The position numbers and the translations under genes were made by a program. The notes below the pieces were generated by a model. The model was not told where the DNA came from and made no database searches. It saw only the letters and a list, made by a program, of their open reading frames with translations. 40,408 nt of DNA, from positions 1 through 40,408 of the IMG/VR virus record IMGVR_UViG_2529292759_000002. The stretch is one strand, 5' to 3'. This document shows positions 1-40,408 of the stretch, piece by piece. The DNA comes from a virus (lineage: Duplodnaviria > Heunggongvirae > Uroviricota > Caudoviricetes). The stretch's first letter is position 1. Every line of letters starts with the position of its first letter.

Positions 1-45
1 ATTGAGTGGGAATGATTAACAGCTAACTCATAGCAACTCATTCCT
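1..45. repeat. attL: attL: left copy of the 45-bp direct repeat bounding the prophage
   Basis: Bases 1-45 (ATTGAGTGGGAATGATTAACAGCTAACTCATAGCAACTCATTCCT) recur exactly at 40364-40408; integrase gene lies adjacent. Confidence 0.85.
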
Positions 46-63
46 ATTCAGATACTAATTTAA

Positions 64-94
64 CCCTCTGTTTTTACAGAGGGTTTTTGTTTTT
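64..94 (+). terminator. Intrinsic terminator-like hairpin just inside attL
   Basis: CCCTCTG / CAGAGGG stem with 6-nt loop followed by TTTTTGTTTTT. Confidence 0.5.
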
Positions 95-140
95 ATGTAT
101 TCATTTCTATTCACTCTACACCATATTTTTCGTCGGTACA

Positions 141-180
141 GGTGACGGTATTACCTTAAAGGTATACTCTCATACCGTCA
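141..180. promoter_or_regulatory. Integrase-proximal regulatory region: GGTGACGGTAT arm-like repeat plus a 15-bp palindrome (TTACCTTAAAGGTAT, 151-165)
   Basis: GGTGACGGTAT at 141-151 recurs at 40282-40292 near attR; TGACGGTA/TACCGTCA inverted repeat flanks the palindrome; 43 bp upstream of the int start. Confidence 0.45.
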
Positions 181-207
181 TGAAAATGGTTTCTATACGG
201 GTGAATT

Positions 208-1464
208 GTGCTTACCGATACAAAATTAAAAAACCTCAAGCCGCAGGACAAACTGTACAAGGTCTCCGATCGTGACGGGCTGTATGTAGCTGTGCTTACG
301 TCAGGCACGGTCTCGTTTCGCTATGACTACCGTATCAACGGTCGCCGCGAAACACTGGTAATCGGGCAGTATGGGCGTGACGGTATCAGCCTGGCAGAAG
401 CGCGAGAAGAACTGATTGCTGCAAAGAAGCTGCTTAAAGCAGGCCAGTCACCGGCTGCGGCTAAACGTGACGGTATCAAAAAGATTCGTGGTGCCGAGAC
501 GTTTGCGGTACATACCGACAGTTATATGAAACACGTCATCCTGGCTGACAGTACCCGCGCAATGAAGCAGGCGGTGATCGACCGTGACATACTTCCTGTT
601 CTTGGTAACAAAATGATGGCTGAAATTACCACATCGATGGTTCGTGATTTGTGTGACCGGATTGTCGAACGCGGTGGTCGGGCAACAGCAGTACAGGCCA
701 GGGAGATCATCAGCAGCGTATACCGTCACGCCAATGACCGTGGTCATGGTTTGTTTAATCCTGCGGCTGACATTAAACCTTCGTCTATCGCCATATTTAA
801 ACCACGAGAGCGAACACTGACACCAGAAGAAATTGGCCTGTTCTTCCGCACGCTGGATGCCATTGGTGCTATGGGCACTATGAAAATGGCTTTAAAACTG
901 GTGCTTATCACTATGGTTCGTAAGGGCGAATTCACCAATGCAACGTGGGATGAAATAGATTTTAAAAAATGGACATGGACAATTCCTTCAGACCGCATGA
1001 AGGGAAGCCGGGCGCATGTTATTTACCTGCCTAAACAGGCTCAGGATATATTGGTCGGGTTGCAGATGTGCGCTGGTGGAAGTGAATATCTGGTTCCTGG
1101 TCGTTACAATTTCCGGAAGCCATTATCTAATGCCGCGCTGAACTCTCTGATCGACAGAACGGTGAAAATAATAAATGAAGATGGTGAGCATATTCAGGGC
1201 TTCACCGTACACGATATGCGCCGTACAGCCAGTACGTTGTTGCATGAGGCTGGTTATCCTTCAGACTGGATTGAAAAGGCTCTGGCACATGAGCAGAAAG
1301 GTGTGCGCGCCGTATATAACAAAGCGGAATACGCCAGACAGCGCGCCTACATGTTGCAGCAGTGGGCCGATATGATTGATTCCTGGATTAACGGGGAGCA
1401 TACAGATCTGATTCCGTTCTCCCCGTCGAAGTTTGAGAGGTGGATGGAAGACAGTAATAAATAA
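208..1464 (+). CDS. int: Tyrosine recombinase / phage integrase, P4-type (GTG start)
   Basis: 418 aa; N-terminus MLTDTKLKNLKPQDKLYKVSDRDGLYV typical of P4/CP4-57-type integrases; C-terminal HDMRR and catalytic Tyr region (VRAVYNKAEY). Confidence 0.9.
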   Translation: MLTDTKLKNLKPQDKLYKVSDRDGLYVAVLTSGTVSFRYDYRINGRRETLVIGQYGRDGISLAEAREELIAAKKLLKAGQSPAAAKRDGIKKIRGAETFAVHTDSYMKHVILADSTRAMKQAVIDRDILPVLGNKMMAEITTSMVRDLCDRIVERGGRATAVQAREIISSVYRHANDRGHGLFNPAADIKPSSIAIFKPRERTLTPEEIGLFFRTLDAIGAMGTMKMALKLVLITMVRKGEFTNATWDEIDFKKWTWTIPSDRMKGSRAHVIYLPKQAQDILVGLQMCAGGSEYLVPGRYNFRKPLSNAALNSLIDRTVKIINEDGEHIQGFTVHDMRRTASTLLHEAGYPSDWIEKALAHEQKGVRAVYNKAEYARQRAYMLQQWADMIDSWINGEHTDLIPFSPSKFERWMEDSNK

Positions 1465-1466
1465 TT

Positions 1467-2126
1467 CTATCCTTCCTGGACTTTGGTAAGCGTCAGATTT
1501 CCGCAGAACACTGCGCCGGTGTCGATGTACATTTGGTTTGCATACACCAGTGGGTGATGTGCTGGCGTATGACCGAAGATGAACAAATCGGCACCGGTTA
1601 TCTCCGAGACAATACCGTCCTGCGCGTCGCTAACCCGCTCACGATTCCATATCACCATTTCTTCCGGTACTGGCTTATCGAATGCGTATTCGTTGTGCGG
1701 GTAGTCTGCGTGGCAGATGACGACCTTCTTATTGCCGGTAACCAGTTCGATAATCATCGGGAGGTTGGTAACCTTTGGCAGAAGGTATTTGAGTTGCACA
1801 TCCTGCTCAGAATCAAGTTGGTGCCACCATCCACCGCCGTTTGACATCCAATGTCCGAAACTTCCGCCGTTGACCAGTGCATCCAGCATCATCTGCTCAT
1901 GGTTGCCACGAACAGCTCGGAACCACGGCATAGTAATCAAATCCAGGCATTCGACGTTTTCAGCGCCGCGGTCAACAAGGTCACCAACGGAAATAAGCAA
2001 ATCGCGCGCCGGGTCGAATGAAACTTTGTCGAGTTCGTTCATCAGCAGTGTGTAGCACCCATGCAGATCGCCGACGACGAAGATATTGCACCAGTCAGCG
2101 CCATTGATGCGTTGATATAGGTTCAT
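1467..2126 (-). CDS. Ser/Thr protein phosphatase, lambda PPase type
   Basis: Start taken at internal Met (MNLYQ...); GDLHG, GDLVDRG and GNHE metallophosphatase motifs; long collinear similarity to lambda phosphatase as recalled. ATGA overlap with the upstream gene. Confidence 0.85.
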
Positions 2127-2785
2127 GCTGCACGCTCCCGCCCCTGGTTGTCTGTTGGTGACAGCGGAGCATTGCTGAATGCATTTGTTAATCCGCCAAT
2201 ATCCAACGCGTATCCAGGATGTAGTTGCACTGCCGGGTCTTCGCACTGATTACCCCAAACATCGAAACCATGAGACGTCTGGCGGGCGAACAGTTCAATG
2301 CGAGAAACATCGCCTAATAATTGCACAAGTTTTTCACGAACGATATCTGGCTTTCTTGAATGCTCAAGCCGCGGTGCGGTAAATGACTGAACGATCCCTG
2401 CATTAATGCGCGTAGGTAGTTTTCCCTTTACCGCAAACAGGCAATCTTCACTATTGGCGCGAGTCATGTGTCCCATACCCATAACCAGTTTATCTGGTTG
2501 TCGACTACCACATTTTATCCACGTGAAGCCCTTCATCGTCATCAGACGAAATCCCCAGGCTTCAACAACTTTTAGTGCTTCGAGTGGTTGTGTTGGCACC
2601 CACCACATGGCCAACAGACAGTTTTCAGCGGTCAAATCCCACACAGGAAGGCGGCAGATATCCAGCACACTCATAACCGGATATTTAAAACCGGCACCGC
2701 GATTACCATCTGCGGCTTTGTCCCGGTATACCCAGGGTGGATCTGCATAGATTAGTGTGTATTTCTTAGTCATAAACCACCCCAC
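2123..2785 (-). CDS. DNA N6-adenine methyltransferase, MT-A70-like (DPPW motif); orphan, no cognate nuclease seen
   Basis: IYADPPW motif near the N-terminus; 220 aa; start is GTG at 2785 or ATG at 2773. Confidence 0.7.
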
Positions 2786-3065
2786 AACATCCTATGCCGC
2801 TATAGTCGCCACGGCGAAGGCCGTTACCTTTTGTGATACATTGGTCCCTGCGAACCGCGATCCTTGCACGTTCAACATCACCAGAAGCAACATCCATACA
2901 CTGAAGCCAAAGGTGAGCGGCAATGCGGAACTGCCCTTTTTTCTCTCTTTCAATCGCGCGTTTTTCGATCTCTATCGCCGCAGGAGTAACGGCGACAATC
3001 TTTGACGGACTGCGCATTGAAACCTTATTCATGTGGTATTTTTCAAGTCGGCTTAACTTTCTCAC
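2766..3065 (-). CDS. Hypothetical protein (uncertain gene)
   Basis: 99-aa ORF in the leftward operon; no recognisable motif; overlaps the methyltransferase start. Confidence 0.3.
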   Translation of the reverse strand: MRKLSRLEKYHMNKVSMRSPSKIVAVTPAAIEIEKRAIEREKKGQFRIAAHLWLQCMDVASGDVERARIAVRRDQCITKGNGLRRGDYSGIGCCGVVYD

Positions 3066-3174
3066 TTAATCCAACCCTCTCTGAAAATTAATGCCAGCAG
3101 ATAAAGCCATGCTGAAACAGAGGCCAGGAATAAGTACCATCCTGACCATTTGCTCCAGTGCCTTAGCAGCGCAC

Positions 3175-3423
3175 TCATGCAGCGTTGCTCACGGGACGAT
3201 ATACACGTTGCTGAACAGGAGGCTTTTTACCCTGGAACTCTGCCGGGCTTGCTGCCTGACGTTCATCAAGCCAACGCTCAACTTCATCACGGTTCCATGC
3301 GCAGCGTTTATCGGTGATATACCAGCGTTTAGGAAATTCCCCTGCGCGCTCCATACGGTCGATAGTGCTCCATGACAGTGGCACCACCGCCAGGAGTTCT
3401 TTCTTACCTAATGCACCTTTCAT
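3175..3423 (-). CDS. AlpA/Xis-family small DNA-binding protein; candidate excisionase or regulator
   Basis: 82 aa; pattern LSWSTIDRMERAGEFPKRWYI...RCAWNRDEVERWLDER matches the AlpA/excisionase HTH signature. Confidence 0.65.
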   Translation of the reverse strand: MKGALGKKELLAVVPLSWSTIDRMERAGEFPKRWYITDKRCAWNRDEVERWLDERQAASPAEFQGKKPPVQQRVYRPVSNAA

Positions 3424-3472
3424 GAATACCTCTCTTGGTTGCAGTGCGGCGCACGTGGCGCCGCGGTGGTGG

Positions 3473-4495
3473 TTACTCGAATTCTGGACGCATATCGTTA
3501 AGCGTCATCATGAATTTTTGGTGATATTCATCACCGAGCTTTTCAGCCATGGTGTTAATTTCATTTTCAGCGCGCTTGAACATCGTTTTTGCATCTTCAG
3601 CAGATGGATCCAGGCTATTAAGTATCGCGATGATATATTCTCGAGCTTCTTCTCGTTCTGAATCTGAAATTGGCGACAGGTGTTGACGCTCATCGTCAAC
3701 TACGGAATATTCACCAGTGATAACAGCTGCGTTATCTTGGCTAAGTCCAGCTTCAGCGCGCTCATCCATAACAACAGCCTTCTGCATTTCAATAGAAACA
3801 GGAAGATATTTGAATAGTCGGCGAATTACTGTTTTTTTAGCCATCTCATCGAAGTGATCAACCCATGGGCCACTGCTACCGGCTTTGCTCAGTGCACGAA
3901 CTTTCTCAATGTCTGCCCGGCTCATAACTTCAAATTGGACTCCGCCATCTTTCAGTCGTGCAACGGCGTAAACGTGCGTTAATTCTCCGCGGTCACCTGT
4001 TTCGCAAGGTAAATGCTCGAGCGTTTCTTCCAGGCCGTATGAGTAGCTGAATTTGTCGTTTGTATGTACGGTACGAGCCGAGATACTCAGGATCTGCCCA
4101 GAGCGGCGGGCAAGGTCAATCATTCCGCGATAGCCGATAATCAGCTGTGCTTCTGTAGATACGGTTTCCCATCTTCCATTTACTTTCTGGCGTTTGTCGA
4201 ACGGTATCAGGTAAGCGTGTCCAAGAGTTCCGCCTGGTTCAAGACCCAATTGGGCACATTGCATAATTGCCCCCAGGAAGCTGGCTTGGTCGCATGATGC
4301 AAGTTTTGGAACCTTTCGGATCTCTGTGGTTGCTATGCGCGCCAGACGGTCTGCTGTCATGTGCTTTGGAAGTGCCAAAGCCATCTGAGCTTTAATTTTT
4401 GGGTCTGCCAGAAGTCCGGCCAGAGTTGTTGGTTTCTCATTATGATGTGCAACTTGGTTACCGGTAGCCGCTGCCTTAAGTGCATTGATAGACAT
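3473..4495 (-). CDS. recT: RecT-family single-strand annealing recombinase
   Basis: 340 aa; strong similarity to Rac RecT as recalled (IIGYRGMIDLARRSGQI, THVYAVARLKDGG.QFEVM, GPWV.H..EMAKKT.IRRLFKYLPVSIE). Confidence 0.9.
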   Translation of the reverse strand: MSINALKAAATGNQVAHHNEKPTTLAGLLADPKIKAQMALALPKHMTADRLARIATTEIRKVPKLASCDQASFLGAIMQCAQLGLEPGGTLGHAYLIPFDKRQKVNGRWETVSTEAQLIIGYRGMIDLARRSGQILSISARTVHTNDKFSYSYGLEETLEHLPCETGDRGELTHVYAVARLKDGGVQFEVMSRADIEKVRALSKAGSSGPWVDHFDEMAKKTVIRRLFKYLPVSIEMQKAVVMDERAEAGLSQDNAAVITGEYSVVDDERQHLSPISDSEREEAREYIIAILNSLDPSAEDAKTMFKRAENEINTMAEKLGDEYHQKFMMTLNDMRPEFE

Positions 4496-4504
4496 TTTTT
4501 CTCC

Positions 4505-5404
4505 TTACTTCATTCTGAAGACGCGTTGTGTCGTTGTTGTTTTGAATTTTTCGAATAACTCAGGGTGTACTGACTGGAATAGCTTCTGGTCGAATCTGTT
4601 GCTGATCTGAGATTTCCATGTGCAGAGCGGCTTTCCGTCCAGGGTCAGGACTGAGTGCTCTTGCATGTACATCTTCAGCTTCTCTTCTGATATAGCTATT
4701 TCTTCTTCCAGTGATTTTCTGCGTGACTTCATGTCTCGTAGATCGTTGAATAGTGCGAGTGCCTTTCCGTCAGCCTCGATACTTGTCCCGGCATCTTTCT
4801 CAAACATCAGCGATACATCGCTTACGCTGGTAGCTTCCGGCGGGTTAAGATTTTTCACTCGGTCCCAGAAAGCGATTTCTTTTTCTAAGATCGCCTGGAT
4901 AGTTTCTTCATCACGCTCAACCCGATAGATTCGGAAGTCGTCGCCACCGATAAGCACACCGAAAACGCATACCTGTTTGTTTGTAACCATCAACCCGTGC
5001 ATGGCCTGGGCCGTGTAATGCACAGGAATTGCATCTGTCTGGATTTCTCCCCATTCTTTGGCTTTGAACGGACTAACTGTTTTGATCTCAATGTTCTCGC
5101 CTGACGCTGCTTCTGCATCGATCTCAGCTGCAATAAAATCATAATCACGGTGGATATAGCGGTTTCCGCGATGAACGATTTCCATCCCTGTTTCCTCAGA
5201 AAGCAGGTCTATTACGTATGGCTCCATACGCTGGCCACGCGTGAAAACTTTCTGCTTGCTTGGGTCTACTGGTTTGACACGTGGCTGGACCTTATCCAGA
5301 TAAACCTCAAGCGGGGTGCGCCATGGGCTAATTCCAAGAATCCCTGCAACATCGCTTCCTCCGATGTATTTTGTTCTATCCATGATTCCAGCGTTCCGCA
5401 TCAT
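4505..5404 (-). CDS. YqaJ-type viral recombinase exonuclease (partner of RecT)
   Basis: 299 aa; YIGGSD..GILG and TRGQ..EP motifs typical of YqaJ/lambda-exo-like nucleases; immediately upstream of recT with ATGA overlap to the preceding gene. Confidence 0.8.
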   Translation of the reverse strand: MMRNAGIMDRTKYIGGSDVAGILGISPWRTPLEVYLDKVQPRVKPVDPSKQKVFTRGQRMEPYVIDLLSEETGMEIVHRGNRYIHRDYDFIAAEIDAEAASGENIEIKTVSPFKAKEWGEIQTDAIPVHYTAQAMHGLMVTNKQVCVFGVLIGGDDFRIYRVERDEETIQAILEKEIAFWDRVKNLNPPEATSVSDVSLMFEKDAGTSIEADGKALALFNDLRDMKSRRKSLEEEIAISEEKLKMYMQEHSVLTLDGKPLCTWKSQISNRFDQKLFQSVHPELFEKFKTTTTQRVFRMK

Positions 5405-5700
5405 GCCGCGTCCCTCTGCCCATCAAGCTGATCCGCCAGATCCCAGCGCGCTATAATTGCCATTGCCTCGCGCCGGTAGGCATCCATCAGTTCTTCGAAC
5501 TCAGGGCTGTCTTTAGCAGCCTCCAGCACTTCCTGACGAACGCCTTTGCCTGTTACAACGTCGAAAGTTGAGGACAGTTGATGAAGTCGGATGCTCTCAA
5601 TCAGTTCAACTTGTCGGTCATATAGCTGTTCTGACAGGCGGTAGTCCTTGTCGAATGCCAGCATGATTTTTTGAAGATTTTTCTGCTGATTAACGTTCAT
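5401..5700 (-). CDS. Hypothetical early protein (Gam/Abc-like position upstream of the recombination genes)
   Basis: About 100 aa from MNVNQQ; translationally coupled to flanking genes; function not recognisable. Confidence 0.5.
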   Translation of the reverse strand: MNVNQQKNLQKIMLAFDKDYRLSEQLYDRQVELIESIRLHQLSSTFDVVTGKGVRQEVLEAAKDSPEFEELMDAYRREAMAIIARWDLADQLDGQRDAA

Positions 5701-5702
5701 TA

Positions 5703-5855
5703 TCAGCCCTCCCATATCTCGTTATCGTTGGCTACATCGCGAGCTTCTTTGCTGACGAAAGCCCACTTAATGCCTTCCTGTAAGGTGCGGAACTTCCAGC
5801 TCATGAATCCGCATGCAGTAACGCAGTACCAACCGTTGATGATTTTCCACTGCAT
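5703..5855 (-). CDS. Small ORF, first gene of the leftward early operon (about 50 aa)
   Basis: Not in the ORF track (<60 aa); ATG at 5855 with GAGGT Shine-Dalgarno 6-10 nt upstream; stop abuts the next start. Confidence 0.4.
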   Translation of the reverse strand: MQWKIINGWYCVTACGFMSWKFRTLQEGIKWAFVSKEARDVANDNEIWEG

Positions 5856-5874
5856 AACTTGTTACCTCGGTCTG

Positions 5875-5951
5875 TTACCGTTGAGGTAATAATTATGCTT
5901 ATTTGGTTTGGTGTCAATAGATATGAGTTAAAAAAATTACCCGCAAGGTAA
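5875..5951 (-). promoter_or_regulatory. OL-like region: two 15-bp palindromes (TTACCGTTGAGGTAA 5875-5889; TTACCCGCAAGGTAA 5937-5951) flanking a candidate leftward promoter
   Basis: Palindromes 62 bp apart; minus-strand TTGACA at about 5922-5927 with a TAATTA/ATAATT -10 candidate about 16 bp downstream. Confidence 0.55.
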
Positions 5952-5960
5952 TCTATCTGG

Positions 5961-5986
5961 CAATAAAAAAGCCGCCATGAGGCGGC
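5961..5986 (-). terminator. Intrinsic terminator downstream of the repressor gene
   Basis: Minus-strand GCCGCC-TCAT-GGCGGC hairpin followed by TTTTTTATT. Confidence 0.7.
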
Positions 5987-6008
5987 TTACTTACTGAAAA
6001 CTATAGTT

Positions 6009-6593
6009 TTATTGTTTGTTTTTTTCGTTCTGGTTGATGACAAATTCAATGTAACTTTCGATCTTTGCTTTCTCGGTTTCGGGTAACAATGCGTAGCGTG
6101 AGCGGTCATAGTTGATAGTCGCAGGGTCGTGCGGGTGAATCAGTAGTTCATATCCGTGACGCCCGAATGCGGATGCAACATTCTCCAGGGTGGAAATGGA
6201 AACGCTGACCTCATTGTTTAACAGGCGGCTGATTGTCACCTGGGCGACGCCGGATGCGCGGTGAAGTTTTCCCTGTGTTGAAAGGTCGCGGCTTTCGCTC
6301 ATCCAGCGTTCCAGGTTGTGAGCCGCCAGCTGACCTATATCGCTCGGGCCGACAGGCTGAAAACCCTCCTGAGAAAGCGAACGATCAATATCAAGCCAGT
6401 TACGGGGTTTATTGGCGGCAGCTTCAATTTTTCGTGCAACCTGGTCGCCGATAACCTTCTTGCCAAGAGCCCAGCGGTTTACCAGATTTGCCTGAGTTCC
6501 AAGTTTTTCTGCCATCCGCGTCTGAACACCATTGAATTCACGGTCGATCAAGTCGTTGAGATTTTGCCTGCGGACGTCCTGGATACTTTTCAT
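6009..6593 (-). CDS. Prophage repressor candidate: tandem HTH (XRE-like) protein with no recognisable S24 autopeptidase domain
   Basis: 194 aa; two HTH-like segments (QTRMAEKLGTQANLVNRWALG and ASGVAQVTISRLLNNEV); divergent from the Cro-like gene with operator-like palindromes between; no GxSM...K signature. Confidence 0.7.
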   Translation of the reverse strand: MKSIQDVRRQNLNDLIDREFNGVQTRMAEKLGTQANLVNRWALGKKVIGDQVARKIEAAANKPRNWLDIDRSLSQEGFQPVGPSDIGQLAAHNLERWMSESRDLSTQGKLHRASGVAQVTISRLLNNEVSVSISTLENVASAFGRHGYELLIHPHDPATINYDRSRYALLPETEKAKIESYIEFVINQNEKNKQ

Positions 6594-7344: not shown

Positions 7345-8136
7345 ATGAGCAGACATGCAACAGATTGGGCCTGGGAGACAGATCCAGGTAGCTCGTCATT
7401 AAAGCTCATACTGCTCTCGATGGCTGACAGAGCCGATGAATATAACCTCTGCTACCCCAGCATAGAACGCCTCGTTAAAGACACTTGCCTGAATAAAAAA
7501 ACCGTGCAGGCCGGACTTATATCGCTCATGAAAATGGGGCTTATTTCAGATACCGGGGAGAGAAAGGGAGCGACAAAAAGAGTGCGGGTTTTCTCTCTTA
7601 ATATAACCAAAAACGGGAACATTAAAGGCAACCGAGAGGGGGGCAATGAACCCGAAAACGGTAATGTTACCGAAAACGGGAATATACCCAAAAACGGGAT
7701 GTTGAATGATCCCAAAAACGGGATCCAGAACCAGTCATATAACCAGTCATTTAACCAAGAGAGGGAGAGCAGGACAAAAAACGGGGATTCTGTGCATCAT
7801 GACCCCGGCGCAAACAACGCCGTGATGAATAACTTTGTTCCTCCTAGTGGGCCAGGGCAATTAGGCAAATTTGTCATGCATGAACAATGGCAGCCATCAG
7901 ATGACTTTCTTCGGAAAAGCTCATTGCAGGGGATCTACCTGGACAGTCTGCCAACGGCACAGGAACTTGCAGAGTTCAGAATTTACTGGATGGCTGAGGG
8001 TAAGGCATACCATCAGGCACAGTGGGAGCAGAAGCTGGCAAGGCGGCTGCAGATTAGCAGACAGAAGCAATCAACATTACCTGATAACAACGTTCCGCAC
8101 TGGAACAGCCCTGAAGCATGGGAGGATTTCTTGTGA
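7345..8136 (+). CDS. Replication initiator (O-like) with an internal iteron-encoded linker
   Basis: 263 aa; N-terminal winged-helix-like region; central repeated KNGN/ENGN peptide encoded by the DNA iterons; directly upstream of the P homologue. Confidence 0.65.
   Translation: MSRHATDWAWETDPGSSSLKLILLSMADRADEYNLCYPSIERLVKDTCLNKKTVQAGLISLMKMGLISDTGERKGATKRVRVFSLNITKNGNIKGNREGGNEPENGNVTENGNIPKNGMLNDPKNGIQNQSYNQSFNQERESRTKNGDSVHHDPGANNAVMNNFVPPSGPGQLGKFVMHEQWQPSDDFLRKSSLQGIYLDSLPTAQELAEFRIYWMAEGKAYHQAQWEQKLARRLQISRQKQSTLPDNNVPHWNSPEAWEDFL
7607..7724. repeat. Iteron array (candidate origin of replication) inside the O-like gene
   Basis: Five copies of CC(A/G)AAAACGG(G/T)A(A/T) starting near 7607, 7652, 7670, 7688 and 7712 (three at 18-bp spacing), followed by an AACCAGTCAT direct repeat. 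Confidence 0.65.
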
Positions 8137-14639: not shown

Positions 14640-15488
14640 TTACTTTTGTGTTTTTGATTTTCTTTGATAGGTGGAATTTAAATCACCATTTATATTTACT
14701 AGAGGATTATTCAATAATGTACTGATTTCTGGATTGTTAATTCCAGTAACGCCAAGTTTCTTTACGGACTCATTAAAGTCTTGTAATGATTTTAGACCTA
14801 CAAGCCCATTAGCAATTGTATTATTTGTTGCCAAAGGAATGTTTTTCTTATAGGACTCATATTCGTTTTTTAAATTTTTGTGAGTTTTTTCTAGATTTTC
14901 TAGTTTAGATGTTGTTTCATCAATAACCTTAGATAATTCTAAAATACGAGCTTGTGCTGCGCGCAGTTCTGTCTCCCTCTCTTTCAATTCAGATGTGAGT
15001 TGTCCCATTCTGTCTTTTGAAAGAATTATTTCCTCTTTCATGTCTTGAATGTTTTTTTCAGCGCCTGTTTTTACTTTTTCGTAAGTAATGTCTTTTTTAG
15101 CCAGCAATCTCTGTAGCCGTGTTTCACGTTGTATTTTTCTTGCCTTCCGGTGGTTTTCGATTGAGTCATTATTATCAAGAGGTTTTGCTTGCCATACGTT
15201 AATGATATTGTTTACCCATGGTAATAGGCAGCAGATAGTAATTACAGATAAGCATGGATAAAACATAACAGTTTTCCATGTGCTGTTATCTGAGATGTAT
15301 GAAATTTTATCTATTATATTTGATTTGCTAAAAAACAGATAAAGAAGTGATTTCCAGTTGAAGGCGCACCAGGACATAACAAAAGCACCAAGCACAGGGT
15401 TTTTAGCTCGATGCACGGCAGTATTGGCAGTAGATAAAAACAGCTCTTTGAACGATTCGAACATACTAATTACCTTAAAGTTTTTCAT
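14640..15488 (-). CDS. AT-rich moron: unknown protein with two N-terminal hydrophobic segments and a long coiled-coil region
   Basis: Reverse strand between the terminase and portal genes; markedly AT-rich; start at MKNFKV (15488) or an internal Met at 15464; coiled-coil-like segment ETRLQRLLAKK...ELRAAQARILELSKVIDETTSKLENLEKTHKNLKNE. Confidence 0.6.
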   Translation of the reverse strand: MKNFKVISMFESFKELFLSTANTAVHRAKNPVLGAFVMSWCAFNWKSLLYLFFSKSNIIDKISYISDNSTWKTVMFYPCLSVITICCLLPWVNNIINVWQAKPLDNNDSIENHRKARKIQRETRLQRLLAKKDITYEKVKTGAEKNIQDMKEEIILSKDRMGQLTSELKERETELRAAQARILELSKVIDETTSKLENLEKTHKNLKNEYESYKKNIPLATNNTIANGLVGLKSLQDFNESVKKLGVTGINNPEISTLLNNPLVNINGDLNSTYQRKSKTQK

Positions 15489-15507
15489 GATTATACCTTT
15501 AAGGTAA
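15470..15507. promoter_or_regulatory. Palindromic site (ATACCTTTAAGGTAA 15493-15507) plus half-site (TTACC 15470-15474) at the moron start; a TATAAT hexamer overlaps
   Basis: Minus strand reads TTACCTTAAAGGTATAATCATG; a second ATTACCTTAAAG copy lies 25 bp downstream in the transcript. Confidence 0.5.
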
Positions 15508-15521
15508 TTTGTGGTCATCAG

Positions 15522-15548
15522 GCAAAAAAAATGCCCGGCGAACCGGGC
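15522..15548 (-). terminator. Intrinsic terminator between the tRNA and the moron (minus strand)
   Basis: Minus-strand GCCCGG-TTCG-CCGGGC hairpin followed by TTTTTTTT. Confidence 0.6.
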
Positions 15549-15711
15549 GAACTGGAAGCAATGAGTTATGCCTTCCGTGGCTGTACGGGTTTACAGCATG
15601 AAGTCATCGCAATGGCGTCCTGCTGTAAAAAGGGCGGTGATAGGCCTTCAAGGGAAACCATCACCGCCAAGCCCCTGGAACTTCTGGCATCACGGTCCTC
15701 AGGCGTGATTC

Positions 15712-15788
15712 TGGCGTGGCATGCAGGATTCGAACCTGCGACCAACCGCTTAGAAGGCGGTTGCTCTGTCCAACTGAGCTAATGCCAC
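15712..15788 (-). tRNA. tRNA-Arg (anticodon UCU), argU-like
   Basis: Hand-folded cloverleaf: acceptor GTGGCAT/ATGCCAC, D-stem GCTC/GAGC, anticodon stem ACCGC/GCGGT with loop CTTCTAA, T-arm GCAGG-TTCGAAT-CCTGC, encoded CCA; 77 nt. Confidence 0.85.
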
Positions 15789-33565: not shown

Positions 33566-34261
33566 TCAGAAGAACCCTGCCTTGTCGTTGATGTACTCCG
33601 CGTGGGTCTGGATATCACGCAGGCATTTGCTCACACCGACGATGTAGCAGAACATGGTGGTCAGTTCCGCCGCCGCGCCCGATACGTCGTGCCCGTCTTC
33701 CTGTAACTGGTTCAGCAGATTCATCAGCAGTGAGTTCTCCGTCAGGCCGAGAACACCAGACGGCGAATGAATCAGGCTACGGTAGCCGGGCTTCAGTGGG
33801 GCACTGTAGGTTTTGTTCTCTATCTTCATCGCCTGCATTACTGCTGACGCCGTGGCGTTGGCTACCTGGTCGGCAACCATCTTTATGCGTTCTTCCTGCG
33901 GGAGCGAGTTTTTAATGTAACTTCCGGTGCGGCGGATCTGAGGAAGAACCTCACCTGTAACCCATTTACGAAAGCGGTAGGGGATAGTGCCTGGTGTCAC
34001 TGCGTCGCGGCAGCGGAGGATCAGTGTGTAGAGGCCTGACTCGGAGATGATGATCGATTCTTGCTCACCGCCAGGGGTGTCGGTTGAAGCGACGCCCTTC
34101 TCATCATCATCAAGTTTTCGAACAGCATCTCGATGGTTTGCTATGCCTATAGCCCGACAAACATCTGAAGCGATAAACCATGGCTCACCATTAATGACGA
34201 TTACCCGTATATCGGCTTGGGATTCGAAAGAAAAAATGGACGTGCTTTTTGTAGCTGTCAT
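33566..34261 (-). CDS. Bro-N / KilA-N domain antirepressor (Ant-like)
   Basis: 231 aa; N-terminal pattern IRVIVINGEPWFIASDVCRAIGIANHRDAVRKL...ESGLYTLILR typical of Bro-N antirepressors; C-terminal domain paralogous to the small upstream gene. Confidence 0.75.
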   Translation of the reverse strand: MTATKSTSIFSFESQADIRVIVINGEPWFIASDVCRAIGIANHRDAVRKLDDDEKGVASTDTPGGEQESIIISESGLYTLILRCRDAVTPGTIPYRFRKWVTGEVLPQIRRTGSYIKNSLPQEERIKMVADQVANATASAVMQAMKIENKTYSAPLKPGYRSLIHSPSGVLGLTENSLLMNLLNQLQEDGHDVSGAAAELTTMFCYIVGVSKCLRDIQTHAEYINDKAGFF

Positions 34262-34418
34262 AGTGGTTACCTTTTAGTCTGGTTAATCACCACTACCGAC
34301 GCCAATCGGTTGGTGGTGAACTGTGCAGGGTTGGCGTAACCGGCTAAAAGGACCCGGCGCACCTTTCGGTGCCCCCACACAGCCCACCATAATACGAATG
34401 TGGCCGTGCTATACGCAT

Positions 34419-34438
34419 AAAAAAACCGCTTGCGCGGT
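34419..34438 (-). terminator. Intrinsic terminator between the small SOS-box gene and the antirepressor gene
   Basis: Minus-strand ACCGCGCAAGCGGT hairpin followed by TTTTTTT. Confidence 0.55.
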
Positions 34439-34530
34439 GAATGCGCCTTTTAGTAATCCGGGACGCCAATCCCGGCACTGGATTTTGCCAGTGCTCGATT
34501 ACTATGGCACAAGAGGAGTGCGTTGTAAAT

Positions 34531-40363: not shown

Positions 40364-40408
40364 ATTGAGTGGGAATGATTAACAGCTAACTCATAGCAAC
40401 TCATTCCT
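40364..40408. repeat. attR: attR: right copy of the 45-bp direct repeat
   Basis: Identical to bases 1-45. Confidence 0.85.

Follow-up and report, generated by a model that had tools for sequence, protein, structure and literature searches.

The two genes that lie beside the integrase gene of this E. coli prophage are best read as independent accessory genes, a putative anti-restriction methylase and a cassette-borne NinI phosphatase, which close the leftward gene string (for recombination and excision) of a phiV10-like temperate podovirus on its integrase side, a reading to which we assign a probability of about 75%. The new contribution of this analysis is that the phosphatase gene, judged from alignments and a survey of related loci, is an interchangeable cargo cassette in a hypervariable slot on the integrase side. 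The finding that was followed up is real and had been described correctly, and it is an ordinary one, the gene types and the phage lineage both being known already.

The window, i.e. the whole stretch of 40,408 nt that was analysed, is a complete integrated prophage, a 40,363-bp unit with perfect 45-bp direct repeats at both ends (attL core, positions 1-45; attR, 40364-40408; 100% identity), and its genome is collinear with the phiV10/epsilon15-like podoviruses of the genus Uetakevirus. Directly downstream of attL lies the gene for a P4-type tyrosine integrase (208..1464, plus strand; Pfam Arm-DNA-bind_3, Phage_int_M and Phage_integrase), which is convergent with the phosphatase gene (1467..2126, minus strand). 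All other genes of this region described here are on the minus strand. The phosphatase gene is preceded by the methylase gene (2123..2773), a PerC-family regulator gene (2766..3065), an ORF for a hydrophobic protein of 38 aa (3062..3178), which is annotated in phage PAS61 and phiV10 as well, and the gene for an AlpA-family excisionase or regulator (3175..3423; Pfam PF05930, phrog_66 excisionase). Further upstream in the same leftward string are a RecT annealase gene (3473-4495) and a YqaJ exonuclease gene (4505-5404), both assigned by Pfam, followed by two small ORFs. A candidate sigma-70 promoter for the string, TTGACA-17-AATTAT (5889..5917, minus strand), lies just downstream of a terminator (5969-5988, minus strand) that follows the repressor gene (6009-6593), and phiV10 has a terminator annotated at the same place. 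This promoter is a weak consensus match only, and promoter-like sites were not enriched in the region. An Rfam scan found no RNA elements within positions 1-6000.

The genes for AlpA, the 38-aa protein, PerC, the methylase and the phosphatase form, in this order, a chain of five overlapping genes, with overlaps of ATGA, GTGA, 8 nt and ATGA, respectively. In the last of these (2123..2126) the TGA stop codon of the methylase gene overlaps the ATG start codon of the phosphatase gene. Because of this overlapping chain it is very likely that methylase and phosphatase are co-transcribed and that their translation is coupled, so that the co-expression proposed in the earlier note is supported. The pair ends the chain and abuts the convergent integrase gene, in agreement with the placement of both genes at the distal end of a leftward operon. 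Just 2 nt separate the stop codons of integrase (1464) and phosphatase (1467), with no terminator detected in between. Leftward read-through past 1464-1467 would be antisense to int and might regulate the integrase; in phiV10, the DUF1382 gene found in this location and the integrase gene converge just as tightly. Since the methylase gene is part of a recombination/excision string behind the terminator that follows the repressor gene, it is predicted to be silent in stable lysogens and to be expressed after induction or infection. In lysogens, E. coli prophage methylases of other families are often transcriptionally silent; once expressed, they are active (PMC4659465; PMC5778455).

Both reading frames are present on the minus strand, and the range that had been given for them, 1467..2785, extends from the stop codon of the phosphatase gene to the GTG that lies furthest upstream in the methylase ORF. 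The starts needed adjustment. That of the methylase was placed at ATG 2773 (216 aa), based on the alignment of homologues, public annotation and a GGGGTGG Shine-Dalgarno-like sequence, and the phosphatase starts at ATG 2126 (219 aa) and not at GTG 2246.

The assignment of the upstream gene to the MT-A70-type methyltransferases with a DPPW motif was borne out. The protein matches Pfam PF05063 (MT-A70) along the full profile (positions 1-172 of 172; E=4.2e-22, 79.3 bits, cut-off 23.9), as well as the 'DNA methyltransferase' family PHROG 359 (phrog_359; 1.3e-119) and the PADLOC Type II methyltransferase model (MTase_II; 2.1e-78), and NCBIfam offers no family for it. DPPW occupies residues 11-14, so that motif IV lies near the N-terminus and the SAM-binding block is C-terminal, the permuted order expected of the beta class. 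In 23 homologues with 63-98% identity, P12 and W14 are invariant, D11 and P13 are conserved in at least 90%, and the SRKPD...IELFAR block at the C-terminal side is invariant or nearly so. The catalytic core spans approximately residues 1-180, and the last ~30 residues vary among these homologues. The closest solved structures by sequence are Tetrahymena MTA1 (7F4R and others; 5.8e-13) and human METTL3 (3e-5), which share the MT-A70 core, with DPPW as motif IV, and the S-x-KP...ELF(A/G)R block, both motifs being aligned. Unlike these, the phage protein is a stand-alone enzyme of 216 aa, with no accessory domains and no gene for a partner subunit nearby. An AlphaFold2 model built from the 23-sequence alignment had a mean pLDDT of 44 and was unusable. 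Another candidate identity was rejected, that of an M.EcoGI/M.EcoGII type enzyme. These E. coli enzymes, which are non-specific, are likewise beta-class adenine methylases, prophage-borne and orphan, but they belong to a different family, with 349 aa, a DPPY motif and a central TRD (PMC5778455), as opposed to 216 aa, DPPW and an MT-A70 profile match.

Neither a restriction endonuclease nor a second methylase was detected when the accessory ORFs were scanned with Pfam and PADLOC, and the other ORFs are collinear with the structural and replication genes of phiV10. Within the scanned accessory ORFs and this phiV10-collinear remainder the label 'orphan' is justified, as the absence of an adjacent endonuclease had suggested. 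We conclude that the protein is most likely a minimal orphan MT-A70 N6-adenine DNA methyltransferase, with DNA rather than RNA as its probable substrate. Since the protein adds little to the catalytic core of 172 residues, its target might be short or degenerate. In the literature that was searched we found no published target motif for this family, in line with what the earlier note had said of the target, nor any experimental work on the family or on methylation in phiV10 or other Uetakevirus members, and no MT-A70 enzyme is listed in the EC958/ST131 and O111 methylome papers. The homologue search returned more than 2,500 matches, and those listed were mostly from Enterobacterales; one methylome experiment would thus annotate thousands of MT-A70 family genes.

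The downstream gene was confirmed to be highly similar to that for the lambda phosphatase. Aside from a match to Pfam PF00149 (E=1.2e-15, 58.9 bits), residues 1-217 align without a gap to residues 1-217 of lambda phosphatase (NinI; 1G5B), with 145 of 217 positions identical (67%; E=6.7e-100), and the match to the PHROG family of NinI-like serine-threonine phosphatases (phrog_246) reached 9e-108. The Pfam matches of both proteins and the match to 1G5B far exceed what chance would give. The similarity to the Ppp proteins of HK225 and phi80 is also full-length and gap-free (79.5% and 78.5%, respectively). The GDLHG, GDLVDRG and GNHE motifs are intact, and D20, H22, D49, R53, N75, H76, H139, R162 and H186, which we take to be the metal-binding and catalytic residues of lambda PPase, are all identical to those in 1G5B. 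A loss of catalytic residues, which the earlier note had named as a sign of inactivity, was not seen in the alignments: DPPW is retained in the methylase and every lambda-PPase position in the phosphatase. The latter is, by these comparisons, an orthologue of lambda PPase (NinI) and a predicted Mn-dependent, binuclear-metal Ser/Thr (dual-specificity) phosphatase. Secondary matches included ApaH Ap4A hydrolases and Pnkp phosphatase domains, and there was no PADLOC match. A copy of the host phosphatases PrpA or PrpB was rejected as an alternative identity, because the protein is closer to the NinI proteins of HK225 and phi80 and scores below the cut-offs of the NCBIfam PrpA/PrpB equivalogs NF008516 (266.1, cut-off 326) and NF007425 (221.5, cut-off 332), to which it is related without being an equivalog. 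Both genes are under purifying selection, with pN/pS values of 0.18 for the methylase (62 alleles) and 0.21 for the phosphatase (13 alleles), summed over allele pairs that are not phylogenetically independent, and both look functional.

As had been observed before, the phosphatase gene lies outside a nin region: instead of a location between the replication genes and Q, it is found next to int, at the end of the leftward string. A nin location is a positional convention and no criterion for membership of the protein family. How the gene came to this place can be seen from an alignment with phiV10 (NC_007804), the type phage of Uetakevirus, which shares the methylase (PhiV10p33), PerC, AlpA, RecT, the integrase and the overlapping chain. 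Homology to phiV10 stops at position 1447, 17 nt before the integrase stop codon, and resumes at 2121, in the region of the phosphatase start codon (GTTCAT, i.e. ATGAAC on the coding strand). The cassette that differs (1448..2120) hence consists of the body of the phosphatase gene and a new integrase 3' tail, the last 17 nt of the integrase gene (1448-1464) being part of the exchange. In phiV10 the slot contains a 64-aa DUF1382 gene (PhiV10p32) in place of the phosphatase gene, and the 3' tail of the integrase gene is a different one. Phages of the phiV10 type cover just 68% of a ~2.2-kb query from this region, in two pieces.

We surveyed the content of the slot in 80 IMG/VR viral loci with a methylase that is at least 97% identical. 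The DUF1382 gene was found in 58 of them, the phosphatase gene in 18 (one truncated) and an unrelated ORF of 82 aa, for which there was no Pfam match, in the remaining 4. In all 80 loci, the alternative cargo gene begins at the same ATGA junction. In one of the loci with the third variant (IMGVR_UViG_2537561506_000022, 4648-5900), the 82-aa ORF starts at this ATGA and is followed by ~1 kb of small ORFs before the integrase gene. The distance between the methylase stop codon and the convergent integrase stop codon varies from ~30 to 500 bp in related prophages of Citrobacter, Kluyvera, Klebsiella, Scandinavium and other genera.

Phosphatase copies with at least 95% identity were found in 146 E. 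coli records and adjoin an MT-A70 gene in every record sampled. The nearest copies in nin regions, those of phi80- and HK225-like phages, reach only ~79% identity at the DNA level and 78.5-79.5% at the protein level, and the first 7 codons of the phosphatase gene in the window have no DNA homology to them. When a recent donor of the cassette was sought among complete E. coli genomes and the phage collection, no nin-region copy exceeded ~79% DNA identity. These identities indicate that the donor is outside the sequenced E. coli lambdoid phages, or that the transfer is old. In the Klebsiella phage vB_KpnP_BUCT711, also a Uetakevirus, a NinI-like metallophosphoesterase gene (4001-4663; 67.6% identical) belongs to the rightward early operon and immediately precedes the replication gene, so this gene type evidently moves between slots. 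The same phage carries a separate DNA cytosine methyltransferase gene further downstream of the NinI-like gene. The slot thus offers a clean example of a lambda nin-region gene that would have been relocated as a cassette to another operon of an unrelated phage type, with translational coupling kept.

The earlier note had also suggested that the two genes may act together early to modify host DNA or signalling, and this part of the proposal did not hold up: a functional partnership between methylase and phosphatase is not supported by the distribution of the genes. That the two form a co-adapted module, for example a joint device for anti-defence or host takeover, might be argued from the ATGA overlap, which implies coupled translation, from the pairing that is stable in ~142-146 complete E. 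coli genomes and is found in 18 of the 80 viral loci, and from the purifying selection on both genes. However, in 62 of these 80 loci an at least 97% identical methylase adjoins either DUF1382 or the 82-aa ORF, at an identical ATGA junction, and the occurrence of the same methylase with three different downstream genes or none speaks against a functional pair. We also surveyed the diversity of MT-A70 genes in 80 species-level loci with 41-87% identity, from Enterobacterales, cyanobacteria, Firmicutes and Bacteroidales. In only one of them, a prophage of Ewingella sp. (3004-5154), was the MT-A70 gene accompanied within 3 kb by a gene for a phosphatase homologue, which is 49% identical and encoded ~0.9 kb downstream, both genes being part of a nin-like run of small overlapping ORFs. 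Moreover, genes of the NinI type are also found where MT-A70 is absent, namely in nin regions and, in the Klebsiella Uetakevirus, in the rightward operon. A module of this kind was therefore rejected on its distribution and is, in our view, the least probable of the alternatives. The two genes would be adjacent because the phosphatase gene is one of several interchangeable cargo genes in the slot, and its location outside the nin region is better explained by cassette exchange in an int-adjacent hypervariable slot than by a joint function. In the preferred reading of two independent accessory genes, the methylase would be a stable part of the phage lineage, and transcription of the leftward string would follow induction or infection. 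The methylase would then methylate both phage and host DNA, most likely protecting progeny genomes against restriction in advance. The phosphatase gene would have arrived by cassette replacement, displacing the DUF1382 gene found in phiV10, and its translation would be coupled to the stop codon of the methylase gene. Its product would most likely have the activity that lambda PPase shows in vitro, that of a broad Mn-dependent phosphatase of phosphoproteins, and would be dispensable for growth, as lambda ninI is (PMC10695390).

Other alternatives concern the activity of either protein by itself. The one we take most seriously, while still considering it unlikely, is that the phosphatase is an anti-defence enzyme acting not on phosphoproteins but on nucleotides or nucleic-acid ends, such as cyclic or dinucleoside phosphates or 2',3'-cyclic ends. 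In vitro, lambda PPase reportedly also acts as a 2',3'-cyclic phosphodiesterase (Keppetipola and Shuman 2007), a point that we counted in favour of such substrates, and the fold family includes ApaH and Pnkp, which were among the secondary matches. A mycobacteriophage metallophosphoesterase has been reported as an anti-defence factor (PMC12287305), but this enzyme is a distant superfamily relative only, whereas the protein studied here shares 67% identity with lambda PPase, an enzyme characterised as acting on phosphoproteins, and it lacks a PADLOC match. Rather less plausible is a role of the methylase primarily in the lysogen, in the epigenetic control of host or prophage genes instead of in anti-restriction. 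The gene is directly downstream of, and overlaps, that of a PerC-family regulator, and a regulatory role is known for Dam and other orphan methylases (PMC4659465), yet its position in a recombination/excision string behind the post-repressor terminator predicts silence in lysogens, and other E. coli prophage methylases are transcriptionally silent there (PMC4659465; PMC5778455). We would give similarly low odds to a composite proposal, in which the ATGA junction would be a dedicated cargo-exchange site of Uetakevirus, the methylase and its cargo would form a counter-defence island with the phosphatase reversing immunity based on kinases or nucleotide signals, and the minimal MT-A70 enzyme, in which no target-recognition domain is evident, would act on an unusual substrate (ssDNA, RNA or a motif that is very short or degenerate). 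Methylation of RNA or ssDNA, the latter for example produced by the RecT/exonuclease system encoded upstream, in place of duplex DNA, was weighed on its own as well and seems very unlikely. The closest solved relatives are the eukaryotic MTA1 and METTL3, METTL3-14 prefers ssDNA and RNA and beta-class enzymes can use both (PMC7544214), the protein barely exceeds the 172-residue core, and the methylase, RecT and YqaJ genes belong to the same string. Nevertheless, the strong match to the PADLOC Type II DNA methyltransferase model (2.1e-78) points to DNA, the members from bacteria and phages are called adenine DNA methylases in public sources, suggesting the same, and Iyer et al. place the bacterial relatives among the DNA methylases of R-M systems (PMC4738411).

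The genes and their exact arrangement were already known from GenBank and RefSeq annotation. The 2.2-kb region is 98.2% identical to that of phage vB_EcoP_PAS61 (OQ921333), in which the genes are named 'serine/threonine protein phosphatase NinI' and 'adenine DNA methyltransferase'. PAS61 and E. coli prophages in RefSeq (NZ_CP123346; APEC O1, NC_008563) have the same int/phosphatase/MT-A70/PerC/AlpA order with 98-99.7% DNA identity, and these copies differ from the window by point substitutions only; over the first 25 kb the prophage is ~82% collinear with PAS61. Among 5426 complete E. coli genomes in RefSeq the region is present in 640 (~12%), with the phosphatase version in 142, at up to 99.7% identity. 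The latter genomes include APEC O1 and ST131 strains, and their annotation reads 'serine/threonine protein phosphatase | MT-A70 family methyltransferase'.

Several other features of the prophage were observed. At 34309-34494 (minus strand), an Rfam scan found C4 antisense RNA (77.7 bits) and isrK (77.9 bits), both above the gathering score, beside an ORF with a Bro-N domain (33566-34261, minus strand), and this region looks like the immI-like antisense-RNA/antirepressor module of P1/P7, here in a podovirus prophage. Between the terminase and portal genes lies a reverse-strand island (14640-15788, minus strand) with an ORF of 292 aa followed by tRNA-Arg(tct). The ORF belongs to no Pfam family and has weak PADLOC matches to LmuB, DruC and PD-Lambda-1 (E ~1e-4), and the island may be a moron or defence cargo. 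In the region of the replication genes, at 7600-7723, there are four copies of a 19-nt iteron-like repeat (AATATAACCAAAAACGGGA, 79-100% identical), which is probably the phage origin. Finally, the PerC-family regulator encoded at 2766-3065 (minus strand) is Pch-like or ANR-like. Prophage PerC homologues regulate the LEE virulence island in EPEC and EHEC.
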